IMG/VR virus record: IMGVR_UViG_3300030372_000635
Coordinates: 1 to 56,980 of that record
Origin: a virus
Lineage: Duplodnaviria > Caudoviricetes
DNA length: 56,980 nt
Direction: 5' to 3' (one strand)
Part shown: piece by piece, positions 18,206 to 51,396 of the stretch
Layout: each line of letters starts with the position of its first letter
Numbering within the stretch: the stretch's first letter is position 1
Program-made: the position numbers and the translations under genes
Notes under the pieces: generated by a model
Database searches by the model: none
The model's input: only the letters and a program-made list of their open reading frames with translations
What the model was told of the DNA's origin: nothing

Positions 18206-21200
18206 TTAGCTAAAGAAAGGCATACTTCCAATTAGACCTTTACCACCAAATAGACTACCTATTCCACCACTACCAAAAAGTAAACTAAAGATGTTTTCTG
18301 TAAATGCATTATCTTGAGCCTCATCTAATTGCATTCTCACTTTTGCTAACTCTTTGTCTCCAAGAAGAAGATTCATAGTTCTTTCTTTAGCATTCTCTGC
18401 TCCAGTAAATGCAAAGTTCATGATGTCTCTTTCTCTCTGCCAGATCTCATCAATAGCTTTGTTAGTTAAACCATTAACATCTTTTGCAAATTGAAAGTTA
18501 CTTTGATTAGCAGCAGCTGTGTTTGCAGTAGTAGTGTCTTGTCTCCATTTAGCATTAGCTTGTGCTATCTGTGCATACATCTGTGCATTAAATTGTTCTC
18601 TTGCAGCTTGTAACTCTGAGTTAAATTTTTGTATTGCATTAGCTTCTCCTGCATTAAATTGATTCATAGCATTTACTTGTGCAGAATTAAACTGATTCAA
18701 CTGTGATTTCATTGTAGCATTGAACTGAGAAGTTTGAGTTTCATTTGCTGCATTAAATTGTTCAGTTGCATTTTGTGAAGCAGTGTCACTTAATACTGTG
18801 TTAGCTAAAGTTTGTGCTTTAAATATTTCCGTTTGTTGTTCATTATTAAGATTAGCCATATCTATCTGCAAAAAGTTTTGTGCATTTTGAACTTGAGCTT
18901 GTTGTTCATTACTTAAACTAGCCATTTCTAACTGAGAGATCTGAGCAGCTTCTGCCATTACTAATGCTTGTTTATTATTTAAGTTAGTAAGATTCATAGT
19001 CTGTGCCATCTTAGCATTCTCTAGTGCTACCTGCTGATCTGCAGTAAAATTCATGTTAGCTATTTCACTAACCTTTGCAGCATTCATAACTTTAGTTTGA
19101 AAGTTTTGATCAAACTCTATCTGCATAAACTTAGCTCTTTGTTCTGCTTTAGCTAAAGCCATCTGTTGTTTATTAGCTGTATCTATTTGTGCTATTGGTA
19201 ATGATGCTTCCATAGCAGCTTGTATAATAGCTTGACCTGCCATACTAGATGCACCTAAACCTCTCTGTGCCATTACTGCAGTAGCTTTACGCATTGCTCC
19301 TGCTGCCCAAGGTGGTGTATTACCTCCCTCAAACTGATCCATCAAGGTAGTTAATTCATCTTGCATAGAAGCAGCTTTTACTTCTCCTGTACCAAAAGCT
19401 TCTGCTACTTTAGTTTGATCTACTGCAGAACCATCTATCATTTCTCCTACTTGCAATGTCCTAGTAGGAGCATCTTCAACTTTAGTTGCCTCTCCTTGAG
19501 CTGCTTCAAGATCAGAAACTTTAGTAGTATCTTTTGTTTGTGCTTCTATTGTTTTTGTAGGACCTTCAGATTTTTGTGCTTCAACATCATCAAGAACTTC
19601 TTTTACATCTTCTTTAGCTGTAGTAACTCCTGCTTTAGTTGTTTTTGCGTCAGAGGGAGTATCTGCTGTTGCTATATCTGAAACCTGTGAAGGGTCATCA
19701 ACAATAGGAGCAGTAGTTGCTGTCTGACCTGTAGTAGCAGATAATACTGTACCCTCTGCATCAGGATTAATTTGTGATACAGGAGCTGCTACTGCTGTGC
19801 CTGCAGGGTCTAATACTGCACCTGCAGTAAGATCAGCTTGACCTTGTGCTACTTGTTCTTTAGTAAGTTCTTGTCCTGCAACTGTTACTGTTTGTCCACC
19901 ATCTTGATAACCTCTAATCATACCACCTTGATAAAAAGTATCTTTACTTTGAGAATATTCTTCAAATGTCATTCCAATAGAATCTAAAAAGGCTTGTGTT
20001 TGCTCTGCATAAGGTCCTTCACCATATTTATGAACACCATCTGCAGGACCAGAATAATAACCTTTTGGAATAAGTGTGTTACCCATACCATATTGAGGTT
20101 TTCCATATTGAGGATTAACAACATCACTTGAAGTGTCTGCATCATCATCAGTAGTAGTAGTAGTTGGAGCATCCGCAGCTTGTTGTACGAGATAAGGAAG
20201 AGTATTAGTTGAACTATATGGAAAATAACCAATAGGTATATTTTGAGAAGGTGTCCATACACCATTACTATTATAAACACCTAAAACATAAACAGACATA
20301 CCTTGTTTATTTTTATAGAGTCTTTGCTCAAGTTGTCCTGCTTTGTCTCCTGTACCATAAACACCTGCAGCTATTTTTTCTGCTCTTGTTTGTGGTTGTA
20401 TAAGTTGAGCTTGAGCTTTACCTCTTTTAATAAAATTTTCTTTTTGTTGTTGAATATTAGATTCAAAAGTTTGAGCAGGAACTTGTGTTGTACCTTCAGG
20501 ACCTGTCAATACTGGAGTTTGAACTGTTCCTGTAGTGCTAGTTCCTGTAGGAACACTTACTGCTTGACCTTCAGTTGGTATAGAAATAGTAGAAGGTGGT
20601 GTAGTTTCATCAAAACCAGTAGGTATTACTACACCATCATCAGTAAATATTTCTGCAGCTTTATTTATCTCTTCTTGTGTTGGACTTAAATTTTGTGTTA
20701 ATACTTCACCATCATCAGTATATGTAATTACATCTGTATCAATAGGTAAATACTGACAAGATCCATCATCTTGGGTTGCTGATGAATTATAATTTGTGGC
20801 ATTTGGATCTGTACAACCTAAAACTGGTTGTGGAGTTGGTATGACTGGTGTAGGTGTAACATCTGGAGTTGTATCATCAGTACCCTCATCTCCATCATCT
20901 TGTTGTGGCAAATCAACAATACCTGCAGCTAAAGCTCTGTTCGCATCATTATAAGATATAGGTTGAAACTCATCTTTTTCATTTTGATAACCAACAAGTG
21001 TAACACCACCTACTTGTTTACTTGTTAAACCTTGGTTATAAACACCCATGTCGTGACTTCCGGGAACTGCTTCATTTTGTGACGTAATCGTATTATAATT
21101 TTGACCCCCTAAAAAATTTTCTGCTCTAGCATCAGTACGACCTCTTACATAGTCTTGAGACACACCTTGACTTGCACCTGCAGATATAGCTCTTTTGTAA

Positions 21201-21526
21201 TTTGCATAATTTTTACTAAACTCTTCTTGAGCATCACTTTGACCAAAATGTTGTTCTGCAGTTGTTCCATCTGTACTTAAAGTAAAGGGTCCATAATCAT
21301 ATGATGTTTTACCAAAAGGATTATCTCCTGCTGCAAGACTACCTTTAGAAAAACCTAACGCTTCACTTTGTATAAATGCACCTTTGTTAGCAGTAACTGC
21401 AGCTTTAGCTCTTGGATTAGCTTTAACAAAAGCATCTATAGATGTCCACCTTGCAGGACCATCATAACCAAAAGGTTCAAGATTATTCTTAGCTTCTCTT
21501 GCTGTTATCTCTCTTTTCTGTGCCAT
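18206..21526 (-). CDS. large internal virion protein with Q/A/N-rich coiled-coil C-terminus
   Basis: PPWAAGAMR, RGLGASSMAG, repeated QFNA units, C-terminal GG-rich hydrophobic tail (pilot/ejection-like). Confidence 0.7.
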   Translation of the reverse strand: MAQKREITAREAKNNLEPFGYDGPARWTSIDAFVKANPRAKAAVTANKGAFIQSEALGFSKGSLAAGDNPFGKTSYDYGPFTLSTDGTTAEQHFGQSDAQEEFSKNYANYKRAISAGASQGVSQDYVRGRTDARAENFLGGQNYNTITSQNEAVPGSHDMGVYNQGLTSKQVGGVTLVGYQNEKDEFQPISYNDANRALAAGIVDLPQQDDGDEGTDDTTPDVTPTPVIPTPQPVLGCTDPNATNYNSSATQDDGSCQYLPIDTDVITYTDDGEVLTQNLSPTQEEINKAAEIFTDDGVVIPTGFDETTPPSTISIPTEGQAVSVPTGTSTTGTVQTPVLTGPEGTTQVPAQTFESNIQQQKENFIKRGKAQAQLIQPQTRAEKIAAGVYGTGDKAGQLEQRLYKNKQGMSVYVLGVYNSNGVWTPSQNIPIGYFPYSSTNTLPYLVQQAADAPTTTTTDDDADTSSDVVNPQYGKPQYGMGNTLIPKGYYSGPADGVHKYGEGPYAEQTQAFLDSIGMTFEEYSQSKDTFYQGGMIRGYQDGGQTVTVAGQELTKEQVAQGQADLTAGAVLDPAGTAVAAPVSQINPDAEGTVLSATTGQTATTAPIVDDPSQVSDIATADTPSDAKTTKAGVTTAKEDVKEVLDDVEAQKSEGPTKTIEAQTKDTTKVSDLEAAQGEATKVEDAPTRTLQVGEMIDGSAVDQTKVAEAFGTGEVKAASMQDELTTLMDQFEGGNTPPWAAGAMRKATAVMAQRGLGASSMAGQAIIQAAMEASLPIAQIDTANKQQMALAKAEQRAKFMQIEFDQNFQTKVMNAAKVSEIANMNFTADQQVALENAKMAQTMNLTNLNNKQALVMAEAAQISQLEMASLSNEQQAQVQNAQNFLQIDMANLNNEQQTEIFKAQTLANTVLSDTASQNATEQFNAANETQTSQFNATMKSQLNQFNSAQVNAMNQFNAGEANAIQKFNSELQAAREQFNAQMYAQIAQANAKWRQDTTTANTAAANQSNFQFAKDVNGLTNKAIDEIWQRERDIMNFAFTGAENAKERTMNLLLGDKELAKVRMQLDEAQDNAFTENIFSLLFGSGGIGSLFGGKGLIGSMPFFS

Positions 21527-21530
21527 CTAA

Positions 21531-21761: not shown

Positions 21762-21764
21762 CTA

Positions 21765-23941: not shown

Positions 23942-26032
23942 CTATGCTGCTATTGCGTAAAATATATAATCACCAGTAGTGAACCCACTAGCTATTTGAA
24001 AGCCACTGTTAAGTGGATCAATTAAATCTGTATTTGTAACAGCAGATGCGTTATTATTAAGTGATAAATAAGAGTCATTACCAGATACAATACCTCTAAC
24101 ATTATCCCAATGATAAAATAAAGCATTATTGCTTATACCACTATCAATTCTTCTTACCATTACCAAACTAGAACCAGAACTAAAACCACAATCTACATCT
24201 GTGCTAGAGCCATTGGTATGACTAAAACTTCCTACTTTACTTATTCCTGCAAGGGTAGCCCAAAGATAAGCTATATAATCTTTACCACTTTGATTTAATC
24301 CATTATATGTGCCAAGAGAAAAAACAGTTGAGGTAGGTGCTGTGCTATTCCAAAGTAAAGTTCCACTGTTTAAATTGATGTTACCTAAACTATTTACAGT
24401 AAAACCATCATCATTTGGAGTAGGAAGATTTTTATGATAAACCCACCAACTGTTGCTAGATGAAACTGTTTCTCTTGACTTACACCAAATCATTTCTGGT
24501 GCTACTCCCAAGTTGTGATTTAAGGTTCTTGCACTACCTGTTCCTGTATAAGCGACTATATCAAAAAATCCTGGTGCTCTTCTCCATGCGTTATAAAGAT
24601 TACCACTGTAGTTTCCATAACCATCACCTGCTCTATTTATTAGACCTTTAGCAGTATCAAAACTTGTAGTTGTACTTCCACCACTTTCAGCATTATCAAG
24701 TTCTGTAGATAAGACTTTATTTCCTCGCAATCTATCTCTCATATAATTAGAACCACCACTTGCATAATTATCTCTAAACATTGCTAAATCAACAGGAAAA
24801 CCAGTATTCATAGTTAAATCATTATCATTTAATGAAGTATTACCAAGTTCAACATCAAATACACTAGCTCTACTTGTAGGTGTAGCCATTGGTCCTCTGC
24901 GTATTGCTACATAAATATAAGTTGCACCATTATTATTTATAGCAGCATTGTTGTCTTGTAATTGAAAACCTGTTGCTGTTGGAGCAGTACCATATTCTGT
25001 AGCTTCTGCATCAGTTTTATTTGGATTTAAACTTCTAGACGAATTAGCAACATTAGCAGGTAATCCTCTTATAGTATCCCAAATAAACCAATCATTAGTA
25101 TTAGTAGTATCTTTTACCATAAGCCATTGTGGTTCAAAACCAAGAGTAACTGATGGTCCGGGATTACTAGAATTACCAGTATAAGAACCACATTGTATCA
25201 TACCATCAGAAGAAGTATCATGTCCAAAAAGATAGGCAACATAATTTTCACCATTTGCATTAACTGAATGGTCTGTTCCAACAGTAAAAACACTGGAAGT
25301 AGGAGCAGTATCATTCCACCAATCAGCACTATCAGCCACAGCTGCATTAGTATTAAGTATAAGATACTTATCCTCAGGTGCAGAACTATCTGCTCCTCTG
25401 TGATAAACTGCCCAATTGTCAGTTTGATCTATATTTTTAACTAGTATCATTCCGGGAGCTTGACCAAGACTATGACTTATAGTTTTTCCTGCACTACCAT
25501 CCCCTGTATATGTTACAACATCAAAAAACTTTGGTGCTTTTCTAAATGCCCAAGAAACATAATCATAAGAAGAATCTGAATTTATTGCAGCATCATTACC
25601 CTTTGTTGTAAAACCATTACCATTACTATTGGGTACAATGTAATGCCCAAACTGATCAAAAAATTCCCCATCAGTAGCATTAGAATTTAATCTTTTTTCA
25701 AAAGGATTACTACCTCTTTTACTGTCAAAAAGAATGTGAACATTATCTTGACTTCTATTTTTTATCCAAACCAAACCATCATTATTTTGTAAGTCTATTC
25801 CATTATTAATACTTTGATCAGAACTTGTTCCACTCCAAATATCAATACTAAATATATTTTCTATAAACTTCTGAGGATTACTAACACCTGCTGTTGGCCA
25901 AAGACCCTGCTTGTTAAGAGCTTGAGCTTCTTCTAGTGTCCATACTCCCGGAGCAGAAGTATCTTGAAAGTTATTAGCAGGAAGAACTAATGATTCATCT
26001 TTAGTAATTAATCCACCTAAATATCTTGTCAT
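23942..26032 (-). CDS. tail fibre / receptor-binding protein with internal repeated domains
   Basis: Duplicated FFDVVTYTG..HSLG.APGMI.VK..W.VYH..W..TAPTS.VF.VG module; N-terminal RYLGGLI and GVWTL. Confidence 0.75.
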   Translation of the reverse strand: MTRYLGGLITKDESLVLPANNFQDTSAPGVWTLEEAQALNKQGLWPTAGVSNPQKFIENIFSIDIWSGTSSDQSINNGIDLQNNDGLVWIKNRSQDNVHILFDSKRGSNPFEKRLNSNATDGEFFDQFGHYIVPNSNGNGFTTKGNDAAINSDSSYDYVSWAFRKAPKFFDVVTYTGDGSAGKTISHSLGQAPGMILVKNIDQTDNWAVYHRGADSSAPEDKYLILNTNAAVADSADWWNDTAPTSSVFTVGTDHSVNANGENYVAYLFGHDTSSDGMIQCGSYTGNSSNPGPSVTLGFEPQWLMVKDTTNTNDWFIWDTIRGLPANVANSSRSLNPNKTDAEATEYGTAPTATGFQLQDNNAAINNNGATYIYVAIRRGPMATPTSRASVFDVELGNTSLNDNDLTMNTGFPVDLAMFRDNYASGGSNYMRDRLRGNKVLSTELDNAESGGSTTTSFDTAKGLINRAGDGYGNYSGNLYNAWRRAPGFFDIVAYTGTGSARTLNHNLGVAPEMIWCKSRETVSSSNSWWVYHKNLPTPNDDGFTVNSLGNINLNSGTLLWNSTAPTSTVFSLGTYNGLNQSGKDYIAYLWATLAGISKVGSFSHTNGSSTDVDCGFSSGSSLVMVRRIDSGISNNALFYHWDNVRGIVSGNDSYLSLNNNASAVTNTDLIDPLNSGFQIASGFTTGDYIFYAIAA

Positions 26033-37131: not shown

Positions 37132-39675
37132 CTACTTTTTGTTTCTACGTTTTGGTCTTTGTATTAATCCTCCTTTATTTTGTGGTCCAATTTTATCTGC
37201 ACCACCTTTTCCAGTTCCAACATCAGTACCCGGTTTCATTTTAGAACCAGATAATCCAGTTGCTGTTTTAGTGCTTACACCTGCTTTTACTGCTGATGCC
37301 ATTTGTTGATTTTTAACTGTTGGACTAAAATCACTTGTATTAGGATTATCATCATCAGCACGATCTTTTCCAGTCTTATTTTCAGAAGCAAATTTTTTCC
37401 TCCAGTTAGGATCAACACCACCTCCACCTCCACCATTACCACCACCAGTAGTAGTAGTAGTTTTACCAATCTGTGACCAAGTTTGATTAGACTTATTTAA
37501 AGCATCTTTAATACGTGTAACAGTTCCACTAAAAACACTTTTTCCTATTTTACTTTCTAAAAACTTTTTTGTAGCAAAACTTGATTCATTTTCTAAGTGA
37601 TCTGCTATTTGTTTATTAATAGCATCAGCTTCATCAATATAGCCTGCAGCTCTTGCTGCTTGTTCCATAATAGTAGCTTTAGCAATACCATCTATGTCTA
37701 TCATTTCATTAACTAATAAACCTGCAGGACCTAGTGCCATCATACTAAAAGCACCAAAAAACTTTTCTCCCATATCTCTACCTAAAGCTTTTTTAGCTTC
37801 ACCTGTAAAGTTATTACCTTTCCAAGTTGTAAAATCTACATCTTTTAGATACTGAGGAACTTCAGGTTCTGTGCTTTTTTTACCTCCACTATCATCTCTA
37901 TCTTTAGCAACTTCTTGTTGAGTTGGTGTTGGTTTATTTAAAGACCAAGGTGGTTGAGTAAACTGTAAATCACTAGCAGGAGTTACAACACCATTAACAA
38001 AAGTAATTACCTTAGACTCACCAGTTTGTCCATGATAATAAGTCATAGTAGTTTTATTCTGTTGTGGTTGACCTTGACCTTGACCTGTTTGATAAATAGG
38101 ACTAGCAGGAGTAAATCCTAAAACACTATAGTCTTGAGGATTAAACGTAGGTTGTGATGCATTTATTGCCTTTTGATCTGCACTAACACCACCATTATCA
38201 AATCCAACAACACCACCTGTAGCTTTCTTCTCTTTATTGTCTTTATCTTTTTGACCAAAAGCTATCATGGTCATATCTACTTCTACTGGTTCACCACCTA
38301 TTCTACCTGTAGCTTCCATCTCTGCAAGACCACGCTTTGCTTCTCCACGTAACTCTTCAAAAAACTTTACACCATAATACTGAACAACATCTGCAGGAAC
38401 AACATACTCACCATCACTTAATTGTGCAGGTATATCATCACGGACTTCTTTAGCTAATGATCCCGGAGGTATTTCATTACCACTAACAGGATCTCTATCT
38501 AGTCCATCATCTTTCATTCCACCTTCTTCAAATAGACTCATCTGTTGTTCCATGCTCATTCCACCTTTATTAAATTGATTAGCAACATCACTTCTAATCT
38601 GTTTTCTGTTGTAAATTAAATCTTCAGCTTGTTTTAAATTTAAGTAAGCTGAACTAGATTCTATCTCGTTTTTAAGTTTATATCGTTCTTTTTCTAATGG
38701 CAAAAGTTCTTTATCAACTAATCTGCTTTGAAATTCAAACGCTTCACGAGCATTTTTAAATTGTTCTGAATTACGGCCAAATTTTTTAAAAGCTTCTTGT
38801 ACCTTTTCATCATATGAGCGAAGTTCTTTGCCTCGTATTTCATTCATCTTTCTTGATATTTCAATATCTTTTTTAAATGTTGGATCGTTTTCAAGAATAA
38901 GTTGTAGTCTATCAAGTTCTTGTCGTTCTTTTACAGTAGGTTTATATACAGAGGGAATATCTTTAGCTATTTGTTTTCCAACTGATTCAGCTTTAAACTG
39001 TTTTTCTCTTTCATAAACATTAGAAAGTAACGCCTCTTTGAATTTTTTCTTAGCATCTGATGAAAGTGAGCTTTTTGCTAACGCTTGATCTATACTCATT
39101 GCATATGCAGATTGTAAGTTAGATCTTTGAGAATCTGCAGTAGCTTTAGCTACACCTGCTTCTTCTAATCTTTTAGTTATACCTTCAGGAGAAGAATCTT
39201 GACTAAGAAGATTTTCTAAAGAAGTTCCTGTAAAAGTTTGATTTACAGAATCAGAAGTTTTTTGTTTAGACTTCTGCTGTTCTTTAGCAAAATTTTCTTG
39301 AAGTGTCTTACTTAAATCAGCAGCTGAAACAGCCATTGACAATTGTTCAGGTGGTGGTGCAGTATCAGTAGCTATTTCATCTGGTTCAACAGTTGTTGTT
39401 GTAGGAGCAGGATCAATACTACGAACTTGTGTTGCCTCAACTGGAGCTGCAGCAACAAGACTAAAACTTTCAGGAGGTGGAGCAGTTTCAGTAACTGTCT
39501 CATCTGGTTCAACAGTTTTTGTTTTAGGAGCAGGATCACGCTGAAGTGTTTGTTCAGCAAGAATTTTAGTATCTACTTTATCTTCTTCCTTGTCATATAC
39601 AATCTGTCCATCAACAATAGTACCTTTATGAGCTTTAATAGGTCTTCTTACTAAACCACTCATCTGTTGTTCCAT
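37132..39675 (-). CDS. large putative internal virion protein with DDIPAQLSDGEYVVPADVV domain
   Basis: 847 aa, low-complexity flanks, several [F/Q]xxGG motifs, repeated MEQQMS. Confidence 0.7.
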   Translation of the reverse strand: MEQQMSGLVRRPIKAHKGTIVDGQIVYDKEEDKVDTKILAEQTLQRDPAPKTKTVEPDETVTETAPPPESFSLVAAAPVEATQVRSIDPAPTTTTVEPDEIATDTAPPPEQLSMAVSAADLSKTLQENFAKEQQKSKQKTSDSVNQTFTGTSLENLLSQDSSPEGITKRLEEAGVAKATADSQRSNLQSAYAMSIDQALAKSSLSSDAKKKFKEALLSNVYEREKQFKAESVGKQIAKDIPSVYKPTVKERQELDRLQLILENDPTFKKDIEISRKMNEIRGKELRSYDEKVQEAFKKFGRNSEQFKNAREAFEFQSRLVDKELLPLEKERYKLKNEIESSSAYLNLKQAEDLIYNRKQIRSDVANQFNKGGMSMEQQMSLFEEGGMKDDGLDRDPVSGNEIPPGSLAKEVRDDIPAQLSDGEYVVPADVVQYYGVKFFEELRGEAKRGLAEMEATGRIGGEPVEVDMTMIAFGQKDKDNKEKKATGGVVGFDNGGVSADQKAINASQPTFNPQDYSVLGFTPASPIYQTGQGQGQPQQNKTTMTYYHGQTGESKVITFVNGVVTPASDLQFTQPPWSLNKPTPTQQEVAKDRDDSGGKKSTEPEVPQYLKDVDFTTWKGNNFTGEAKKALGRDMGEKFFGAFSMMALGPAGLLVNEMIDIDGIAKATIMEQAARAAGYIDEADAINKQIADHLENESSFATKKFLESKIGKSVFSGTVTRIKDALNKSNQTWSQIGKTTTTTGGGNGGGGGGVDPNWRKKFASENKTGKDRADDDNPNTSDFSPTVKNQQMASAVKAGVSTKTATGLSGSKMKPGTDVGTGKGGADKIGPQNKGGLIQRPKRRNKK

Positions 39676-39685: not shown

Positions 39686-42652
39686 CTAAAATTTGTATTC
39701 ATTATCTATAGTAATTGACTGACCCGGACCTTGTATATATTGTGGTATTTTATCTGTACCAATTTTAAACTCAGCTGCAACTCTAGTAGCATCTATCTCA
39801 GACATTTCTAATGGTTTATCAAAACTATAATCAGTAATTTGTAAAAGTTTATGTAAAATAGTTCTTTCTTCTATATTAAAATCATTTCTAGTTTTACGTT
39901 TTAAAATTTTAGCACCTGATGTTGGATCTATTGATTCTGAGACAGATTTAATATTTTTAAATATTTCTTTTTCTTTAGGGGTCATAAAGTTATTAAATAG
40001 ATTTGAATTCATTTTAGTCTCCATTATAAATCTACTTAAAAATCCAGACTGAAGTTCTTCTATTTGTGGAACAATAGTTTCTAATCCTATCTTATTTAAT
40101 CCATTTATAAAAGGATCTGCTTCTAATAAAGAACCCTTCTGAAGTCCTGTAAAAAACATTTTTTGAAAATCTTGATACGTTATTGCTTCAGCTATTGCTA
40201 GTGATAAATTATCTGCATCTAAATCTTTTTCAATAGCTGATCCTTTAAATTTAGTATTTCTTAAATCTTTTAATAAAGAAGAATTTTTAATATTTTTTTG
40301 TAACTTAGATACAAAATCTTCTATAGTATCTATACCTGATTCTAAATCTGTTAATTTTGATGGATCTATCCCACCCTTAGAAGTAAGATCAGTAAATTTT
40401 ATTTCAGGATTTTTGCCCGTTATTAGTAAATCAAATAAAGTTAATCTTGCTGCAGCACCGGCAGGTTTAGAAGCAGAAGACGGTCTTGTTCTCATACCAA
40501 TAAACTTATTCACCATTTCAAGATAAGCATCTTTACTTAATTGATAAGGAGGAATTTTCTTTCTTGACTCAAAGGGTAAATTTAATCTAGCTTGAACTAA
40601 TCTAGCTTCAACTTCTGCTAAGTCATTAAGATATGTAAAATGTTGTTTTATATTATGAAATACATTTCCCTCTTTAAGATCATTAAAATATTTTTGAGGA
40701 TCTTTCATAAGTTCAGATTTTTTATTAAATGTAGATGTTGACATAAACTCTTCTGCAGGAGCACCAATCTTTTCCATTAATTCATACTGCAATTTTTTTG
40801 ATAACACTTCAGCTGCTTTAGGACTTAATTTTATTGGTGAAGGAGCATTACTACCTGCTAATGTAGGATATTCAGTAGGACTTACTTTAGCAAGATCTGA
40901 TACAATATCATATTCTCCATTTCTGTAAAACTGTATATAATAATCAGGCAATGATCTATATAAAGGATGACCCGGAGTAATACCATATTTACCTAAATTA
41001 TTAAAAGTATTAATTCTACTAGCCACTTCTCTAGCATTTTCCATCCTAGCTACATTAAATGTTTGCTTAATACCACTATGTCTACCAAAATCTAGAAAGT
41101 TATTCTTTCCTTGTATTACATGTTGTATTTCGTGAAATAAAGTACTTATAATAGATTCTTGAGTGGCATCTGTAATATTATTATTTAATTTATTTCCATT
41201 CATAATAATATTAATATCCTCTGGATCACCTACAAGATTTTTAATGTTTAATTCTATTATCCCTCTAGGATCATCTATTATTTTACCATAACTGTTCATA
41301 GATCCTTTTGGAACATATTGACCATTTACTCCCATTGCTTCACCAGATTTAGTAAATTGAATATTAAGAGTTTTTAATTCTGGAAACAGCTTAAATAAGT
41401 CAACATGTTTAATTAAATCTTGCAATTGTATAGCAGGATCTCCTTTTTTTGGATTTAATGAAGATAAATGCATTCTGTGTAACATTGTATTATAAGGAGT
41501 AACATCTGCAAAATCGCCTACATTATTTAAAGGATAATTAAATTTAATACCACTATTATCTATTTCAGTAAACAATACATTATTTTTTCCCGGCATCCAA
41601 CCAGTCTTAACCCATATCTCATTTAATCTTCTATTAACATTTACTTGATCATTTGGTTGTAATAATTTAATATCATTAAATATATCACCTTTAGCATCTA
41701 AAGCTTTTGGATATATTTCTTTTTTATAAAGATTGTTTATTGATCTTTTTGCTATTCTATAAGAAAGTTTACTACCCCAACCAAATCTTCTACCAATTTT
41801 ACTTAAATCAGGATCTTTTATATTTAAAGAAGCTGTTTTAGTTGTTTTACCTTGAACAGGTACAAATATAGGGTTAATATTATTTAGTAAATTATTTTTA
41901 TTTTGTGGATTAGTATTAATATTTTTACTAATACCTGAAGAGATAGGTTGTAAACTTCCATTATCAGGTGGAAAATTATTATTTAAAAATTCTTGTACAC
42001 CCTTACCTGCATTATAAACACCTTTACTAGTTAAATTAACAGCACCTTTTAAAGCTTGACCTCCCGGTATTGCTTCTGAAACAACTAAAGCATCATATAA
42101 AGCTAAAGATCTTAAACGAGTTACTTCATCATCTGTCGCTTCGTTAATATTAATCCCTTCTCTTTTAGCATAATCATTTAATGTATCCATAAAAAGTTGT
42201 TTAGTAGATGTACTAAAATGCTCTACATAATTAACTGCTCCTTCTGCAGCATAATTTATAAAACCTTGTTGTGCAGCATCTTTAAATTCATCAAATACAC
42301 CACTAGCTGCTGCTTGAATAAAACCCTGAGGATCTTTTCTTATACCATCTTTCATTTTTTCTACAGCATCATTATACTCAGGATCAAGATCCATTCCTGC
42401 TAATTTTTTTGCAAAAGGTTTAAACAAAGGGAGAGTATAATGTTGTCCTAGTTCTGCTAAACCACTAACTAAACTAACAACATTGTTTGCTGCTATAGAT
42501 CCATAAGATTTACCTTTAGATTTAAGAGGATCTAAATTATAAATATAGGGTCTTGTTTCTTTAGCATTAAACTTTAAATTAGCATAATCCTCTTCACTCA
42601 TAGATTCATAATTATGTAGAGGAGATTGATTATTCAACTGATTTGTTTGCAT
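39686..42652 (-). CDS. polyvalent-type protein: LPD23-like domain + zincin metallopeptidase
   Basis: IWVKTGW.PG....FTEID; STLFHEIQHVIQ (HExxH) and downstream Y...AEVEARLVQ.R. Confidence 0.75.
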   Translation of the reverse strand: MQTNQLNNQSPLHNYESMSEEDYANLKFNAKETRPYIYNLDPLKSKGKSYGSIAANNVVSLVSGLAELGQHYTLPLFKPFAKKLAGMDLDPEYNDAVEKMKDGIRKDPQGFIQAAASGVFDEFKDAAQQGFINYAAEGAVNYVEHFSTSTKQLFMDTLNDYAKREGININEATDDEVTRLRSLALYDALVVSEAIPGGQALKGAVNLTSKGVYNAGKGVQEFLNNNFPPDNGSLQPISSGISKNINTNPQNKNNLLNNINPIFVPVQGKTTKTASLNIKDPDLSKIGRRFGWGSKLSYRIAKRSINNLYKKEIYPKALDAKGDIFNDIKLLQPNDQVNVNRRLNEIWVKTGWMPGKNNVLFTEIDNSGIKFNYPLNNVGDFADVTPYNTMLHRMHLSSLNPKKGDPAIQLQDLIKHVDLFKLFPELKTLNIQFTKSGEAMGVNGQYVPKGSMNSYGKIIDDPRGIIELNIKNLVGDPEDINIIMNGNKLNNNITDATQESIISTLFHEIQHVIQGKNNFLDFGRHSGIKQTFNVARMENAREVASRINTFNNLGKYGITPGHPLYRSLPDYYIQFYRNGEYDIVSDLAKVSPTEYPTLAGSNAPSPIKLSPKAAEVLSKKLQYELMEKIGAPAEEFMSTSTFNKKSELMKDPQKYFNDLKEGNVFHNIKQHFTYLNDLAEVEARLVQARLNLPFESRKKIPPYQLSKDAYLEMVNKFIGMRTRPSSASKPAGAAARLTLFDLLITGKNPEIKFTDLTSKGGIDPSKLTDLESGIDTIEDFVSKLQKNIKNSSLLKDLRNTKFKGSAIEKDLDADNLSLAIAEAITYQDFQKMFFTGLQKGSLLEADPFINGLNKIGLETIVPQIEELQSGFLSRFIMETKMNSNLFNNFMTPKEKEIFKNIKSVSESIDPTSGAKILKRKTRNDFNIEERTILHKLLQITDYSFDKPLEMSEIDATRVAAEFKIGTDKIPQYIQGPGQSITIDNEYKF

Positions 42653-42842
42653 TACTATTTAACTCATCTCTAAGATATTTCATTCTACGTAAACAAGCAA
42701 TAGATCCCTGTAGTTTATACACCATAGAAACTTCTGTTGCTTGCTCTAGTGATTTATGTTGTTTAGCTATAGCATCATCTATATACTCTACAAATGCATC
42801 CCATAGTTCTTTATCAGTAGTAAGTTTTCTTAATATCATCAT
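42630..42842 (-). CDS. small conserved protein downstream of portal
   Basis: LEQA....VYKLQG.I..LRR...LRD. Confidence 0.75.
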   Translation of the reverse strand: MMILRKLTTDKELWDAFVEYIDDAIAKQHKSLEQATEVSMVYKLQGSIACLRRMKYLRDELNSNANKSVE

Positions 42843-44959
42843 TATTGTATAGGTCCTTGATCACCAGTAAATCCGGGTTCTTGTGGAGTTGGTACTGAAC
42901 CAGTTCCTATTGTACCACCACCAGAGCCTTGTGTATCTTCTACCTGTCCACCCGGAGGTGCAGGTGGTTGACCTTGTTGTTGTGGCATCATTCCTTGTGG
43001 GGGTGCAGGAGGTGGATTTTGTGCTTGAAACTTTTTAAGTATCTCTGCTTGTACAGCAGCTTGACTCATAGAGTTAGCTACCTTATCAGGATCAAGATCC
43101 ATACTCTTAGCAATCTCTCTAACAATATAATCCATTCTAGCAAAAGGTGCAAGAGCAGGATTAGATACTGTTTGCATAAACTGCATAAGTCTTTGACTTC
43201 TAACTTCATTAGCCATTAAACTTTCTGTACCTTGAGCTTTAACTTCAAGATCACCTTTAATAGCTGGGTCAAAGTCAAACTGCATATTAAAATTAAAAAA
43301 TGCTTTACCTAGTGGTCCTAATAAATAGTCATCTACATTTTTAATAACATTACGAATAGAACCATTAGCTGCATTCATTAACATGGATATACCAGAAGCA
43401 GTTCTACCTACACCCTGTATACCTGTTTGTCCATGAGCAAATGAAGGAAAACCAGTAGACTCATCTGAAAGTTGTCTAGCTTTATCAAACATCTGCATAT
43501 TTTCACCGGCTACATTAGGAAACTTAGTTCCAAAGATTCCCTGTCCGGGAGCACCACCCTGTCTTCTAAATACTTTTCCGGGATATACTGTAAGATCTTG
43601 TCCGGGAACTAGGTTAGTCTCATCTACTTCTATTAACAAGTTTCCTGATAGTGCAGCATTATCTACACTCATTCTCATAAAACCATTCATAAGAGTTTGT
43701 GTATCATCCATGTTTTCTGCAATACCTACACCAAATATATTATATGGATTCATTTCATAAGGTGTAGCATAATAAGGTAGATAAGCAGGAGTAAATGGAT
43801 TCATTACTAATCTTAATACACAACTGTTACAAACCCATGCATTAACACTTACTTGCTCTACATCTTTTAATTCTTTAGGTATATCTATATCATATTGTTC
43901 TATGATCTCTCTATCTACAAAACCCCAGAACTCTAATACTTCAAATCGTTGAGAATAATCATCTTCATTACTCTCATCCATTGCGTGTTCCCACCATTCT
44001 TTATTGTAGTTCTCACCTATCTCTAATGCTTTATCAATAGCATTTTCTCTAAAGAAAGGTCTACGTTTTAATGCACGTAGTTGTGAACGAGACATCTTGT
44101 GTCTCTCTATAACATACTCTGCTTCATCCATATTGTTTGCATCTGGATCAGGATAGAAGTTCCAGATAGAAACATTAGAAGTTTGTGGTACAGTTTTAAA
44201 TACTGGATTGTATTCACCTTCTTCATCCCAATTAGGATATTCTTTATCAACTGCAAAAGGCCCTTTCATAATACCAGTACCAAATAAGGCAGCTTCAAAA
44301 GCAGCAGATCTTAATTGTTTCTTAGCATTAGACTCTTCTAATTGATCATGTATTTTCTTTTCCATCTTTTTAGCTGCAATCATTGCAGGGTGAAACTGCA
44401 CAGCAGATGGACTTTTACCCGGTTTAAACTCTACATCTTCCTCAACTGCGCTCAGATCGTCTTTAAGAGGCCCTACACGGTCATTAAATTCTGGCAGTGT
44501 CTCCCCCGGCAAAAGTTGATTCGGGTCTGTAGCACCCGTTTCTGTCTCTCCTAGAGCCTCTTTGAGTTGTGGGTTAGTTTCTACACTAACTGTATCTTCA
44601 ACTCCTTCAGGTAAAACTGTAGGATTAATACCTAATGGAAAACGATTACCACCAAATAATACTTCTACTAGTTGTCCATAAGCAGCTAGTACTTTTGTTT
44701 TAGTAACCTTTACAAATACTCTTGACTTTTCTGTAGAAGTAAACTGAACTTCAGGACCATAAAGACCTCTATAGTTTCTGTAAGATTGTATCCATCTTTC
44801 TTCATCACTTCTTCTGGCAGTTTCTGCTTTGCTAAATTTTTCTTTTATAAATCTTTCTATCTGACCTGCAGGTTCATCATTGAGAGCATCTGCTTCAACA
44901 TCATCTATTGCTGCAGATTCTTCAGCATCCATTGCCATTTCTTGTAAATCTTTTACCAT
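42842..44959 (-). CDS. portal protein
   Basis: 705 aa after TerL; YRNYRG, KSRVFVKVTKTKV, FYPDP, FGVGIAENM, GRTASG. Confidence 0.92.
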   Translation of the reverse strand: MVKDLQEMAMDAEESAAIDDVEADALNDEPAGQIERFIKEKFSKAETARRSDEERWIQSYRNYRGLYGPEVQFTSTEKSRVFVKVTKTKVLAAYGQLVEVLFGGNRFPLGINPTVLPEGVEDTVSVETNPQLKEALGETETGATDPNQLLPGETLPEFNDRVGPLKDDLSAVEEDVEFKPGKSPSAVQFHPAMIAAKKMEKKIHDQLEESNAKKQLRSAAFEAALFGTGIMKGPFAVDKEYPNWDEEGEYNPVFKTVPQTSNVSIWNFYPDPDANNMDEAEYVIERHKMSRSQLRALKRRPFFRENAIDKALEIGENYNKEWWEHAMDESNEDDYSQRFEVLEFWGFVDREIIEQYDIDIPKELKDVEQVSVNAWVCNSCVLRLVMNPFTPAYLPYYATPYEMNPYNIFGVGIAENMDDTQTLMNGFMRMSVDNAALSGNLLIEVDETNLVPGQDLTVYPGKVFRRQGGAPGQGIFGTKFPNVAGENMQMFDKARQLSDESTGFPSFAHGQTGIQGVGRTASGISMLMNAANGSIRNVIKNVDDYLLGPLGKAFFNFNMQFDFDPAIKGDLEVKAQGTESLMANEVRSQRLMQFMQTVSNPALAPFARMDYIVREIAKSMDLDPDKVANSMSQAAVQAEILKKFQAQNPPPAPPQGMMPQQQGQPPAPPGGQVEDTQGSGGGTIGTGSVPTPQEPGFTGDQGPIQ

Positions 44960-47806: not shown

Positions 47807-47905
47807 GTCTTTCCTCTCTTTTTCTAGTGTGGGCATTTCTGTGTCTTATTCTTGTAATAGGAAACATCCTGTCTCCTAAGTACCTTCTTATATAAGGTAA
47901 GTGCC

Positions 47906-48277: not shown

Positions 48278-48368
48278 ATTTTTTACCTTTACCTGAAAGA
48301 TACTTTACTCTTTTTTTAGTATATTTATCCAATCTTTTTTCTAACCATTTTAAAAATCTACTAATCAT
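48270..48368 (-). CDS. 32-aa basic peptide (not in ORF track)
   Basis: MISRFLKWLEKRLDKYTKKRVKYLSGKGKKYD; overlaps both neighbours. Confidence 0.5.
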   Translation of the reverse strand: MISRFLKWLEKRLDKYTKKRVKYLSGKGKKYD

Positions 48369-48444
48369 TTTTTGACAGCCAAATTAAAGTTGTTAATATA
48401 GAAATTAACACTATAAAATATGTAATAGTAAAAGCTGTAATCAC
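48361..48444 (-). CDS. 27-aa single-TM peptide (not in ORF track)
   Basis: GTG start in GTGA overlap; MITAFTITYFIVLISILTTLIWLSKND. Confidence 0.45.
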   Translation of the reverse strand: MITAFTITYFIVLISILTTLIWLSKND

Positions 48445-48521
48445 TGCTTTAAACACTTACCTGCTTCAGAACACTCTTTATAAGTTGTACAGGCTGAACA
48501 TATTACTCTAAAGTTCTTCAT
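48441..48521 (-). CDS. 26-aa four-Cys peptide (not in ORF track)
   Basis: TAATG-coupled; MKNFRVICSACTTYKECSEAGKCLKQ. Confidence 0.55.
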   Translation of the reverse strand: MKNFRVICSACTTYKECSEAGKCLKQ

Positions 48522-48760
48522 TATAGTGTCCATGAGTTAAAGTATACTAACATATTTTTTGGAGCTTGTCCATGCTTTAATGCAGCTTGCTTCCAAACAT
48601 TGTACTTCTTTATGGCTACTTCTTTAGCTTGCTCAAACTCTTTGTAAGCTTTCTCCATATCACCATAACGAAGATCATGTAACTGCTGCTGCATATCTTC
48701 TATCTTCTTTTCTAGTTTCATCTCTTCAGATATTTTTATGTCTTGCTTTGTATCAACCAT
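48521..48760 (-). CDS. small coiled-coil protein
   Basis: 79 aa, AAGGAG RBS. Confidence 0.7.
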   Translation of the reverse strand: MVDTKQDIKISEEMKLEKKIEDMQQQLHDLRYGDMEKAYKEFEQAKEVAIKKYNVWKQAALKHGQAPKNMLVYFNSWTL

Positions 48761-48763
48761 TTT

Positions 48764-48880
48764 TTACTCCTTTATAAAAGCAATGTAAAGGCAAAGTCCT
48801 ATTATAAGCAACTTGCCATAGTCTAGGTCAAAGATTGTTCCTTGACCAAATTTCTTTTGAAACCATTCTTTGTTAAACAT
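48764..48880 (-). CDS. 38-aa membrane peptide (not in ORF track)
   Basis: MFNKEWFQKKFGQGTIFDLDYGKLLIIGLCLYIAFIKE; GGAGG upstream. Confidence 0.65.
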   Translation of the reverse strand: MFNKEWFQKKFGQGTIFDLDYGKLLIIGLCLYIAFIKE

Positions 48881-49115
48881 TATCTCGTACCTCCGATTTT
48901 GCTTGTACGTTGACAGTAGACCTGCCCTTGTTTACATAAAGTCCAAACCATGCTGCACCTGCTCCTACTACGACAGAAACAAATCCTGCTTGTGCATTGT
49001 TTGGGTCTGGTAAATCCATAAACCAGTTACACGTTTGATAGAATACCACCATGTACGCTAGTATTAATAATCTTGGAACTATTCTCCATGAGTCTAGTTT
49101 TTCTGGAGTGATCAT
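48873..49115 (-). CDS. two-TM membrane protein (holin-like)
   Basis: LDSWRIVPRLL, WFMDLPDP, QAGFVSVVVGA. Confidence 0.7.
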   Translation of the reverse strand: MITPEKLDSWRIVPRLLILAYMVVFYQTCNWFMDLPDPNNAQAGFVSVVVGAGAAWFGLYVNKGRSTVNVQAKSEVRDNV

Positions 49116-49348
49116 CTATACCTCGCTGTTTTCTTTGCAATGCCTTTAGGCTGTTTGACAAACTGTTTACCTGCTTTACCACCTTTGGCTTTAGCTCTGT
49201 TTGTGGCAGCCTTCTCTGATGCAGACAGAGACTTCCATGCTGCATCAGGTAGGTATCTTCTTTTGCCTTTTGAGGGTTTACCAGAAGAAGTTCTCCACTT
49301 CTGCTTACCCCAATCTTTAAGAGACTTCTGTGATTTAGCTATTGCCAC
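49112..49348 (-). CDS. basic protein, C-terminal half of a DUF5872-like protein
   Basis: SQKSLKDWGKQKWRT, RYLPDAAWKSLS..EKAATNRAK, GKQFV. Confidence 0.75.
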   Translation of the reverse strand: MAIAKSQKSLKDWGKQKWRTSSGKPSKGKRRYLPDAAWKSLSASEKAATNRAKAKGGKAGKQFVKQPKGIAKKTARYR

Positions 49349-50025
49349 TACTCTTCCTTTGCGTAGAGATTATTAAAAGTTGTTTCTGGATCTAAATAAC
49401 TTGTGTGTATTTCTGCTGCGTGTAGATACTGACTAGGCTTAAAGTCTGGTGCTCCTTCTCCTGTCTCCCACAATGCAGGACTTGTAGCTCTAACTCTGTT
49501 GTTAGGAAGTGCCACTATGTTTCCAGTCCAGTTACCTGCATCTGTTAGTTGTATTACGTGACTCTGTTTGTGTTGAGCAGGATCATCAGCAATAGGATTT
49601 TCAGTATAATCTACAGTAAATAAATACTTTCCTTTGTAAAACTCACCATCTATTTTACAAATCCAAGGACTTGAACTAACTCTCTCCATGTTTACTACTG
49701 AGTGATGATGAGAGGAGCAATCCCAAGGCTGTACAAGATGTGTCTCCATTCTGTCAGGCCATTCTTCTAGTGGCTCATCAGCTACCAGTGCTGTGATAGG
49801 CATCCTTGCCCACATTGCACCACCATGTACATTCTGTTCATTATCGTCAAAGTCACTCTCACAGCCAGTAAATACAACTTGAAAACTTAGACATCTATCT
49901 GGTATCGTATTGACTGCGATTGCCATTCCATGTAAAAACTCTCCATGATAATCTTCATGGTTACAGGTATACTCTCTTCTCACCCAACACTTGAAGTGAG
50001 GAATGTTGCTAATTAAATAGGGCAT
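49348..50025 (-). CDS. conserved phage protein of unknown function
   Basis: 225 aa; WVRREY, GGAMWARMPI, QPWDC, YLFTVDY, QHKQSHV, ALPNNRV. Confidence 0.8.
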   Translation of the reverse strand: MPYLISNIPHFKCWVRREYTCNHEDYHGEFLHGMAIAVNTIPDRCLSFQVVFTGCESDFDDNEQNVHGGAMWARMPITALVADEPLEEWPDRMETHLVQPWDCSSHHHSVVNMERVSSSPWICKIDGEFYKGKYLFTVDYTENPIADDPAQHKQSHVIQLTDAGNWTGNIVALPNNRVRATSPALWETGEGAPDFKPSQYLHAAEIHTSYLDPETTFNNLYAKEE

Positions 50026-50318
50026 TACTTCTCCTTTTGATGTTGCTTTTTCAACTGGAGCTTGGCTTGTTTAGATAAACGAACCACTTCAGTCTTACCC
50101 ATTACTTTAGCACGTTGTTCCATCACTGTCAAGATCTGAATTTTTCTAGCATAAGGTTTTTTTACTCTCTTTACTTTTGCAATAGTTGCTCTAGCATCAG
50201 CAGGAGTAGCAAATTTTATACTGACTGTATCTTTAGGATTCTCATCAGTATAAAGTCTTCTACCACTACCTTTAGGTTTTTTACCTGTTCCTACTCTTGG
50301 ATCTCGTTTTTTTGACAT
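50025..50318 (-). CDS. small basic protein
   Basis: GTGKKPKGSGRRLYTDENPKDTV, ARKIQIL.VMEQRA. Confidence 0.75.
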   Translation of the reverse strand: MSKKRDPRVGTGKKPKGSGRRLYTDENPKDTVSIKFATPADARATIAKVKRVKKPYARKIQILTVMEQRAKVMGKTEVVRLSKQAKLQLKKQHQKEK

Positions 50319-50448
50319 GAGAGTTTTTATATCTGGTTTTCTGATCTTTTTGAATCTTAGTTAAAGTTTTAGCTTGACTAGCGTGTAGCTTAGAAGCTTT
50401 TCTTAGTCCACCAATAACTTTCTTTAAAGGTTTAGTATAATGTGGCAT
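50281..50448 (-). CDS. 55-aa basic protein (not in ORF track)
   Basis: TAATG-coupled; MPHYTKPLKKVIGGLRKASKLHASQAKTL... Confidence 0.7.
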   Translation of the reverse strand: MPHYTKPLKKVIGGLRKASKLHASQAKTLTKIQKDQKTRYKNSHVKKTRSKSRNR

Positions 50449-50627
50449 TATCTATATCCTCCTCCTTTAGCCTTGTACTGTTTAGCTAACATCTGTGCTT
50501 TTCTAGCTGACCACTGACCGGGATTACCACCTTTACCACCTGCTTTAATTCTATTAAACAGATTCTTTCTCATAGTGGGTTTAGTATAATTACCTGCTTT
50601 ATTTACTGTAGATTTTTTTGCTGCCAT
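50448..50627 (-). CDS. 59-aa basic protein, N-terminal half of a DUF5872-like protein (not in ORF track)
   Basis: TAATG-coupled; GNYTKPTMRKNLFNRIKAGGKGGNPGQWSARKAQMLAKQYKAKGGGYR. Confidence 0.8.
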   Translation of the reverse strand: MAAKKSTVNKAGNYTKPTMRKNLFNRIKAGGKGGNPGQWSARKAQMLAKQYKAKGGGYR

Positions 50628-50968
50628 TAGCTTGGTATCTCCGTAATTGATGCAACTACGTGTAGCCTATTAGCTGTAGCTGCTTGAACTTTTAAAATAT
50701 CTCCGGCTGTTAGTAATAAATCTCTAGATAATAACTCTACTGTACCATTAGCACTAATTGACTTAACTTTAAAAAGATTAAAGACAGCAGAAGCAGCATC
50801 AGTAATAGTTACTGTTATTGTATCTGCATTCCCACTGTCTTCAGAAATAATAATAGATTCAACAATAGAATCATATCTATTAGGTACAGTATAAAGTGTT
50901 GTATTGTCTGTTGTTGTAAGATCTACTCTAGCAACTCTGAGAGCAGAAGAAGTTTGTATGGTTGACAT
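50627..50968 (-). CDS. small beta-sandwich virion protein, similar to 28551-28913
   Basis: TLYTVP..SIV.SIII...LTAGDILKVQA...SITEI. Confidence 0.7.
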   Translation of the reverse strand: MSTIQTSSALRVARVDLTTTDNTTLYTVPNRYDSIVESIIISEDSGNADTITVTITDAASAVFNLFKVKSISANGTVELLSRDLLLTAGDILKVQAATANRLHVVASITEIPS

Positions 50969-51396
50969 TATCTACCTCTACGAGCAGCTCCACCTCTAGC
51001 CATACCCTTCTTCTTCATCATAGCACCACCTCTAGCCATGCCTTTCTTTTTCATGGTAGCACCACCTTTAGCCATACCTTTTTTCTTCATCATGCCACCT
51101 CTATTCATCTTACCTTTACCATCCATAGCAAATTTAGGAATCATCTTACCTGTTTTAGGATCTTTACCCATAGGCATAGCACCACCTTTTGAGTAGCCCT
51201 TCTTCTTCATCATAGCCCCACCTTTAGCCATACCTTTTTTCTTCATTCCACCTTTGGCATAACCTTTCTTTCTCATCATGCCTCCACCTTTCATACCAGT
51301 AAGGCCTGTGGCTGAACCTGCAGGTTTCTTTTTTGTAGGTGACATCATACCACCCATATTCATTCTTTTCTTAGCTGCACCTTTTTTCTTCATCAT
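50968..51396 (-). CDS. Met/Lys/Gly-rich repetitive basic protein
   Basis: About nine (M/Y)xxGG units such as MMKKKGMAKGGA; AGGAG RBS. Confidence 0.8.
   Translation of the reverse strand: MMKKKGAAKKRMNMGGMMSPTKKKPAGSATGLTGMKGGGMMRKKGYAKGGMKKKGMAKGGAMMKKKGYSKGGAMPMGKDPKTGKMIPKFAMDGKGKMNRGGMMKKKGMAKGGATMKKKGMARGGAMMKKKGMARGGAARRGR

Follow-up and report, generated by a model that had tools for sequence, protein, structure and literature searches.

A conserved [FYM]xxGG motif in late proteins of an HMO-2011-type marine podophage: a putative ribosome-binding site at one module border and possible protein-level roles elsewhere

Nested genes with in-frame internal starts are known from phage morphogenesis operons, for example C/Nu3 of phage lambda. 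Short signals of other kinds act at the protein level: adenovirus cleavage sites follow the consensus (M/L/I)-x-G-G-x, with the hydrophobic residue at P4, while the cargo-loading peptides of encapsulins, which contain glycine, and the T4 capsid-targeting sequence are short terminal peptides on otherwise unrelated cargo of an HK97-fold shell. The subject here is the motif [FYM]xxGG, which recurs in three late proteins of 142, 847 and 1106 amino acids (aa) encoded by the virus record IMGVR_UViG_3300030372_000635. The window analysed is the entire record of 56,980 nt, which has a completeness rating of 100% and is a complete genome of an HMO-2011-type marine podophage. An initial annotation of this DNA had interpreted the motif as a candidate code for virion targeting or polyprotein processing.

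Further points of comparison are the polyvalent proteins, whose zincin is predicted in the accessible text of Iyer et al. 2017 (PMC5512222) to process such proteins, P1 DdrB being cited there as processed before packaging, and the podovirus ejection proteins, as covered by the accessible parts of Swanson et al. 2022 (PMC8954989) and of a study on N4 (PMC13434306). A literature search, with supplementary files outside its scope, returned no description of the motif, of the core domain introduced below or of HMO-2011-type virion proteomics.

The motif is real and conserved in homologues of the 142-aa, 847-aa and 1106-aa proteins, this conservation constituting stronger evidence than enrichment over shuffled sequences. 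It is not one single code. The preferred explanation, to which a probability of about one half is assigned, assumes two origins and needs no single reader protein or code. The copy at the module border of the 847-aa protein and the Gly-Gly tails of related cargo genes would be a Shine-Dalgarno (SD) element (AAAGGTGGA, AAGGAGGT or GGAGGT) that is read in frame 4-12 nt before the ATG of a conserved core, in front of whose start variable N-terminal cargo modules would be spliced in, or from which they would be split off. The other copies would be protein-level features.

The module border of the 847-aa gene

The following features, all on the minus strand, define the border:

37132..39675 (-): 847-aa portal-proximal, putatively internal protein with a variable N-terminal module (aa 1-367), a conserved core and a C-terminal region
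38287..38532 (-): conserved core comprising LFEEGG, DPVSGNEIP, EVRDDIPAQLSDGEYVVPADVV, a long helix and GRIGGEP
38560..38574 (-): FNKGG border motif, whose K-G-G codons AAA GGT GGA form an SD-like element
38551..38553 (-): ATG of M375 (MEQQM...), candidate internal start with a predicted 473-aa core-only product
39658..39675 (-): ATGGAACAACAGATGAGT, copy 1 of an exact 18-nt direct repeat, at the annotated start of the 847-aa gene
38536..38553 (-): ATGGAACAACAGATGAGT, copy 2 of the 18-nt repeat, at M375

The core, a segment of about 100 aa, has 5511 homologues at E<=0.001 and displays 50 invariant columns in a 30-sequence alignment; searches of Pfam and PHROGs assigned no family to it. Motif counts were taken from the 120 best hits, of which 106 carry an N-terminal extension and 114 were scored for later motif copies. 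The border copy, in the form PhixxGG, is kept in 95 of the 106 extended homologues at 0-3 residues from the helix that opens the core, its first residue being F in 73 cases, Y in 14, M in 7 and L in one. Clustering of the 90 residues that precede the border gave 24 unrelated groups, and PhixxGG forms the junction with the core in 22 of them, as it does in all nine ORFs that fuse a zincin to the core, so that the junction persists whatever lies upstream. The N-terminal modules are of many unrelated kinds, with LysM, LPD23 and methyltransferase among the identifiable ones. Overall, the core carries swappable cargo modules of at least 24 unrelated kinds at its N-terminal side. The initial annotation had placed the motif at borders between blocks, which agrees with its position at module borders and termini. 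LFEEGG is a copy inside the most conserved block of the core.

At the border, the motif coincides with a potential start signal, as AAAGGTGGA precedes the M375 ATG by 7 nt, M375 being the sole internal Met of the 847-aa gene with a strict SD context. SD-like elements are in general use by this phage, and the strict pattern precedes 28 of its 45 annotated starts versus 25 of 347 internal in-frame ATGs. In addition, the two ATGGAACAACAGATGAGT copies flank the 374-aa N-terminal module, and the context upstream of the annotated 847-aa start equals that of separate core genes. Such a separate gene is opened by the MEQQM ATG in 10 of the 22 viral loci with a core anchor (27 loci were fetched) and in 16 of 27 metagenome loci; the helix equivalent to that of the core start opens HMO-2011 gp49, and CRP-603 gp62 begins shortly before the core DP element. 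When the distinct 20-nt stretches upstream of the core ATG, from fused and split forms, were scored with a loose and a strict pattern, an SD-like element was present in 22 of 22 contexts, 20 of which matched the strict one.

The reading of this element depends on where the upstream open reading frame (ORF) ends. If it stops early, non-coding TAGGAG, TAAGGAA or TGGAGAG occupies the SD position, and if it overlaps the element, the latter is read as KGG, QGG, IGG or YGG, the codons being AAAGGTGGA, CAAGGAGGT, ATTGGAGGT and TATGGAGGA, respectively, 4-12 nt before the core ATG. Separate cargo genes end in ...LAKGGLI*, ...MAQGGLVA*, ...YSKGGVV* or ...KKIGGY*, and a GG tail closes five of seven cargo genes in the viral loci versus 6 of 573 other ORFs of at least 150 aa across the loci. 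Tails of the KGG type arise because the K-G-G codons are the SD element of the core gene. Among the 15 cargo genes of metagenome split forms, two have the strict tail, five have KK[IY]GGY and eight have no GG tail; split genes break within 1-3 residues of the motif. A C-terminal tag on the cargo proteins was considered and dropped, the tails being explained by the ribosome-binding site (RBS) of the downstream gene and missing from the said eight genes. Moreover, none of nine distinct fused contexts uses GGT for the second Gly of the junction, versus 41 of 105 other motif copies, with GGT accounting for 64% of Gly codons genome-wide.

Since the SD element and ATG at the border are used as a gene start in relatives, the modules would be separated by translation together with gene fission and fusion, and not visibly by proteolysis. 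The module border is therefore best regarded, on the strength of sequence comparison, as a translational boundary of a nested or split gene and not as evidence of cleavage. The 847-aa gene probably yields two products, the full-length protein and, by internal initiation at M375, the 473-aa core-only protein, and the modules would thus come apart with no protease. In this respect, it resembles nesting of the lambda C/Nu3 type, in which an in-frame ATG with its own SD element lies inside a longer ORF and the short product represents the C-terminal part; likewise, the 847-aa gene belongs to the head block, between portal and scaffold genes. In contrast to C/Nu3, the long form here has interchangeable N-terminal modules (24 unrelated types), and in many relatives the boundary separates two genuine genes.

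Proteolysis as an alternative

The processing code put forward by the initial annotation would require that a protease, be it the zincin of the neighbouring 988-aa protein, the M28-like peptidase or a host enzyme, cuts at or after GG and turns the 142-aa protein into short basic peptides. The zincin candidate has the following features:

39686..42652 (-): 988-aa polyvalent-type cargo protein with a zincin-like domain, ending in ...YKF* with no GG tail
41120..41134 (-): HEIQH zinc-binding motif, with a candidate third ligand in EVEAR at 40601-40615

HEIQH and the Glu of EVEAR are invariant or nearly so among 23 sequences. An AF2 model of residues 11-120, with a predicted local distance difference test (pLDDT) score of 74-93, comprises three strands and the HEIQH helix; its best structural match is the zincin-like 3e11_B (Z 5.4, root-mean-square deviation 3.1 over 86 residues), followed by other zincins at Z 4-5, so that the fold matches are weak but consistently zincins. 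A Foldseek search with the same domain model yielded nothing significant. Pfam MPTase-PolyVal was matched at E=0.038 in a homologue, and the 988-aa protein itself matches LPD23 only at E=0.1. Partners of the polyvalent type include LPD23 at 2e-18 in the homologue P0103 and PF18838 in three core-family hits, besides LysM and methyltransferase. The signature H..LF..YPEL ... HEIQH.IQ..EGF..GG ... EVEAR is widespread, with at least 121 relatives on viral contigs, and many members of the family reside in ORFs of more than 2400 aa from phages unrelated to HMO-2011.

A cleavage code would accord with the position of the motif at module borders and with the breaks of split genes only 1-3 residues away. 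The residue following GG, which is also kept hydrophobic, would suit the S1' pocket of a thermolysin-like enzyme, and nine ORFs fuse the zincin to the core. Furthermore, the polyvalent-type zincin is predicted to process such proteins (PMC5512222, accessible text). However, the same source, as far as accessible, has the N4 virion RNA polymerase, which carries a related zincin, packaged unprocessed, and the border copy is accounted for by the internal start. In all three families the hydrophobic residue occupies P5 (-3 of GG) and not P4, and LFEEGG would place a cut within the most conserved block of the core.

The genes available for such a reaction are few. Only three are peptidase-like, namely those for the zincin-like domain of the 988-aa protein, the M28-like peptidase (56080-56979) and an M15 endolysin. 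As the initial annotation had stated, a prohead protease is not recognisable: searches with Pfam and PHROGs detected none of the S78, U35, S49 or assemblin-like kinds in the head module or in other ORFs of at least 100 aa, nor any clan-CE or diglycine cysteine protease in the 45 ORFs of that size, remote homologues being beyond the reach of these searches. The zincin, in turn, does not track the motif. Phage CRP-9 has the motif-rich gp54 and no late HExxH protein, its sole HExxH ORF of at least 100 aa being a 123-aa early one. Zincin ORFs in core-less loci contain 80 motifs versus 44.6+-6.8 expected, but in 7 of the 12 longest listed zincin ORFs one of the hits is a conserved GF[AT]xGG just after HEIQH, inside the domain; otherwise there are 0-4 hits per ~2500 aa. 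A zincin-motif link was rejected on the grounds of CRP-9 and of the giant zincin proteins, whose junctions show no enrichment beyond the in-domain site.

Cleavage at the motif is unlikely because an SD element with a start accounts for the border, the Pfam and PHROGs searches brought up no protease of the diglycine type, motif and zincin do not go together, the hydrophobic position is P5 instead of P4 and LFEEGG lies within a conserved block; the processing code as a whole is accordingly rated as quite improbable. The locus does share with adenovirus and African swine fever virus sites a hydrophobic residue that precedes Gly-Gly, and the small, very basic 142-aa protein is reminiscent of adenovirus pre-mu. 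It departs from these viruses in that one more position separates the hydrophobic residue from GG, no such cysteine protease was found, the border copy would be an RBS and the capsid is of the scaffold-dependent HK97 type. As to the polyvalent proteins of PMC5512222, the accessible text describes large, multidomain proteins next to head genes with zincin-like metallopeptidase and LPD domains and a presumed co-delivery with DNA, which would hold for the proteins here, too. The difference lies in the attachment of modules to a ~100-aa core that Pfam and PHROGs leave unassigned, and in processing by the zincin, which is unsupported.

Motif copies away from the border

The three motif-bearing proteins comprise the following further features:

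50968..51396 (-): 142-aa Lys/Gly/Met-rich protein (K 25%, G 24%, M 18%, net charge +42) with nine [FYM]xxGG units, overlapping as MNMGG, MKGGG, YAKGG, MAKGG, YSKGG, MNRGG, MAKGG, MARGG and MARGG
51136..51162 (-): DPKTGKMIP in the 142-aa protein, a second element shared with the 847-aa core
37132..39675 (-): motifs of the 847-aa ORF, FNKGG (aa 368), FEEGG (382) and FDNGG (492), plus KATGG (484) and QNKGG (832)
38188..38226 (-): tandem motif KATGGVVGFDNGG after the core
37135..37182 (-): C-terminal tail QNKGGLIQRPKRRNKK of the 847-aa protein, with K, G, G and L each at least 90% conserved
18206..21526 (-): 1106-aa probable internal or ejection protein, its C-terminal half rich in Q/N/A and its end hydrophobic and glycine-rich; motifs FYQGG-MIRG-YQDGG (531-544) and FGSGG (1084), degenerate ANKGA (46) and FSKGS (59)
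19895..19936 (-): tandem FYQGGMIRGYQDGG of the 1106-aa protein
21338..21352 (-): degenerate FSKGS of the 1106-aa protein

The strings listed by the initial annotation are present in these genes, including about nine units in the 142-aa protein; KATGG, which it had located near the C-terminal end of the 847-aa protein, actually lies mid-protein. Measured against composition-preserving shuffles, the predicted enrichment was found in each of the three proteins, with 9 motifs versus 1.57 expected in the 142-aa protein (none of 2000 shuffles reaches 9), 3 versus 0.47 in the 847-aa protein (P=0.006) and 3 versus 0.63 in the 1106-aa protein (P=0.02). All 31 minus-strand (late) proteins together contain 24 motifs versus 9.8+-3.0 expected, a value that becomes 15 versus 8.5+-2.9 when the 142-aa protein is left out, and the 14 plus-strand (early) proteins contain one versus 1.9. 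The anticipated contrast between late and early proteins is therefore seen in this genome, but it is not clean in phage CRP-9, since there not only the late (17 versus 9.0+-2.9) but also the early proteins (6 versus 2.4+-1.6) are enriched.

The modest late excess outside the 142-aa protein, the slight enrichment in CRP-9 early proteins and the emergence of the 142-aa units by duplication would be expected if the motif had no function and were a by-product of glycine-rich low complexity, AT-rich codon preference and tandem duplication. This explanation is hardly likely in view of the position-specific conservation despite unrelated flanks (22 of 24 clusters). Among distinct GG contexts, F/Y/M at -3 is found in 222 of 725, 215 of 248 and 41 of 96 in the three families, against backgrounds of 9%, 19% and 9%, which is a 3- to 5-fold excess in all of them; the figure of 215 of 248 belongs to the 142-aa family. 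Besides, only the last three of the nine units of the 142-aa gene still form a tandem at the DNA level (36-nt period, 83% matches), and the other units must therefore be kept at the protein level.

Conservation of individual copies points in the same direction. The second, LFEEGG-type copy is kept in 110 of 114 core homologues, and after the core a tandem GG-x(1-3)-G-Phi-xx-GG is present in 61 of 114 and a single copy in 28. The C-terminal region of the 847-aa protein has a hydrophobic patch and a basic tail, and GG[LIMVA] plus a basic tail ends 67 of 114 core homologues. In the 1106-aa protein, the tandem Y-x-GG-M-I-[RK]-G-Y-x-x-GG is kept in 9 of 22 related loci, with variants in five, absence in six and the site uncovered in two, while the position orthologous to FSKGS reads F[SAN]xGG in 15 of 22. 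Together with the border counts and those of the 142-aa family, these data bear out that the motif is conserved in homologues, as the initial annotation had envisaged.

In terms of structure, AF2 predicts the core alone to be mostly disordered with three helices (pLDDT 53), and in this low-confidence model both N-terminal motifs cap the C-end of a short helix in a disordered segment; a sequence search of the PDB with the core gave chance matches only (E >=0.43). The non-RBS copies, for which no start codon offers an explanation, are LFEEGG, the tandem after the core, the KGGL-type basic tail, the 1106-aa tandem and the 142-aa repeats. They would be situated in glycine-rich disordered segments of probable capsid-internal or ejected proteins, where they would most likely end helices or form hinges, which is the simplest reading, or else provide weak cohesive contacts. 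K-G-G sites would also be natural places for gene fission, because their codons resemble an RBS.

The large motif proteins resemble podovirus ejection proteins, as depicted in the accessible parts of PMC8954989 and PMC13434306, in being large and partly disordered, in their location in the structural module, in some cell-wall-binding or lytic modules and in hydrophobic segments, and according to the latter source the C-terminal domain of the N4 virion RNA polymerase has an HExxH subdomain as well. They differ from the ejection proteins of T7, P22 and N4 by having no sequence or fold match to them and by a portal-adjacent position and a core that are specific to the HMO-2011 type: all 14 records matching the 847-aa protein in the phage database are of this type (Roseobacter CRP phages, Puniceispirillum phage HMO-2011 and one uncultured phage). 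Hydrophobic glycine-rich segments are located at 37714-37761 (-) in the 847-aa protein (FFGAFSMMALGPAGLL) and at 18209-18277 (-) at the end of the 1106-aa protein (FGSGGIGSLFGGKGLIGSMPFFS), and these could insert into membranes during ejection. A guess by eye that the N-terminus of CRP-9 gp54 is a CHAP/NlpC hydrolase was unconfirmed by Pfam and was dropped.

The 142-aa protein belongs to a family with 697 hits at E<=0.001 that are built from the same units. In the ESM Atlas, its model has a pLDDT of 0.48; Atlas searches returned unnamed viral clusters only, the weak leads crAss_CARG1 (0.84) and DUF6496 (0.78) lying below the bar of the tool; tblastn against phage genomes gave no match, probably due to the low-complexity filter. 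A SAP/HeH-like C-terminus in some family members proved sub-threshold (E 0.031; 14.3 bits versus a cut-off of 23.9). The 142-aa protein resembles the N-terminal part of the core in a further respect, the pattern DP.[ST]G..[IVM]P. Its only two occurrences in the six frames of the genome are in these two proteins, compared to 0.001 expected per shuffled late proteome. Of 120 hits per family, 85 in the 142-aa family and all 120 in the core family contain the pattern, always at a distance of 2-12 residues behind a GG. In addition, a strict SD context precedes 13 of 25 internal in-frame ATGs within the 142-aa gene, versus 25 of 347 in other genes; this may simply follow from the repeat or may reflect multiple starts.

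This second ordered element shared by the 142-aa family and the core lends itself to an explanation by a cargo-loading or docking tag, in which Phi-x-K-G-G-Phi is bound by one procapsid receptor (inner face of the capsid, scaffold, portal or core) and presented in multivalent form by the 142-aa protein. The restriction of the motif to, and its conservation in, three unrelated families of internal or ejected appearance, its terminal position with KGGL and a basic tail in 67 of 114 core homologues, the rarity of GG tails in ORFs other than cargo genes (6), the maintenance of F/Y/M at -3 and of a hydrophobic residue at +1, and the predicted disorder of motif regions alone, which is often so for binding motifs, would all fit such a tag. 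By analogy, the putative motif would be short and terminal on unrelated proteins like the encapsulin and T4 peptides. In contrast to these peptides, most C-terminal examples here are explained by the RBS of the next gene, as is the border copy. Many cargo genes lack a GG tail, among them the gene of the 988-aa protein and those of eight of the 15 split forms with cargo, HMO-2011 gp49 has no KGGL-type tail, CRP-603 gp62 has neither this tail nor the N-terminal copies, and the receptor is purely hypothetical. The tag is consequently viewed as possible, if on the doubtful side. A single co-folding run of the capsid protein, the putative scaffold and core aa 355-505 (alignments A2-A4) scored 0.00 and was counted neither way.

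A more speculative version, considered unlikely and advanced tentatively, combines non-RBS copies (the KGGL-type basic tail, the tandem GG motif, the 1106-aa tandem and the nine units of the 142-aa protein) with DP.[ST]G..[IVM]P into a 'sticker' code of the capsid interior that would co-load unrelated internal proteins via one receptor or through co-condensation with one another and with DNA. The 142-aa protein would act as the multivalent driver, and translation of its gene from the 13 internal ATGs with SD-like contexts might give a nested ladder of products; if this were true, many basic peptides would result without any protease.

Several observations weigh against the preferred two-origin explanation. 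The SD-like codons at the border could be a relic of fusion, and AAA GGT GGA is near the commonest K-G-G codons of this genome, which makes the codon argument (0/9 versus 39%) a modest one. F/Y/M is kept at the junction (95 of 106) and in three cargo-tail families, a feature unexplained by an RNA signal alone that therefore argues for protein-level constraint at this site, too, and all five cargo-tail families that overlap the SD element read it in the Gly-Gly frame. A shared binding partner, unpredicted if there is no single reader, is suggested by the GG-then-DP order that the 142-aa family has in common with the core. Finally, the compared sequences share descent, and conservation and context counts are thus non-independent events.

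Genomic setting and relevance

The late genes run on the minus strand from 51995 down to 11840, in the order small terminase, large terminase, SU10-type portal (42842-44959), a small conserved ORF, the 988-aa, 847-aa and 291-aa proteins, the last being the scaffold by position, followed by the capsid protein (34910-35980), an SU10-type adaptor, a nozzle-like protein and fibres, after which come the 1106-aa protein, a tail lysozyme and three further large proteins. Integrase, primase-helicase, DNA polymerase, ribonucleotide reductase and the M28-like peptidase are encoded on the plus strand. Neighbouring and accessory genes are:

42633-42842 (-): small ORF between the portal and cargo genes, containing LRRMKYLRDELN
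51416-51700 (-): DUF6321 (3e-13)
50451-50627 (-): GQWSARKAQ-type ORF of the basic-ORF cluster
49115-49342 (-): small basic ORF of the same cluster
1309-2412 (+): tyrosine integrase (phrog_1 at 9.5e-41)
56080-56979 (+): M28-like peptidase (phrog_4191 at 1e-73; Pfam Peptidase_M28 at 1.2e-5)

The small ORF at 42633-42842 is conserved in HMO-2011 (gp50), CRP-603 (gp63), CRP-9 (gp55) and metagenome loci. The 142-aa gene resides within a cluster of small, very basic ORFs (48500-51712, -) that shares pieces, as seen by eye, with CRP-9 gp65-gp67 and gp69. CRP-9 gp65 ends in two KGG units, some members of the 142-aa family share the gp66 C-terminus, and in the relatives P0176 and P0188 a gene of the 142-aa type forms an in-frame fusion with the 113-aa gene that comes next (phrog_1276; here 50627-50968).

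Owing to the tyrosine integrase, the phage may be temperate. The M28-like gene overruns the end of the record and reads on in frame into positions 1-~230; bases 1-138 match 56849-56980 at 85%, and the final 77 nt are identical to 62-138, which fits either a circularly permuted record or an internal gene repeat. The glycine-rich fibre proteins of 512 and 323 aa (26032-28541, -) both end in ...HGGLS*, because the RBS of the next gene is read in frame: the last codons of the fibre genes hold the GGAGGA of that site, and the stop overlaps the next ATG.

A general caution arises from this locus, in that Gly-Gly at protein ends or borders can be the RBS of the next start codon. The remaining conserved GG motifs and the basic 142-aa protein constitute defined targets for experiment. 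HMO-2011-type phages are, according to the accessible text of PMC9038755, a dominant and broadly distributed viral group in the sea. In this context, a portal-adjacent gene that would act as a fusable and splittable core with swappable modules offers a testable picture of how a phage may vary the proteins it injects.

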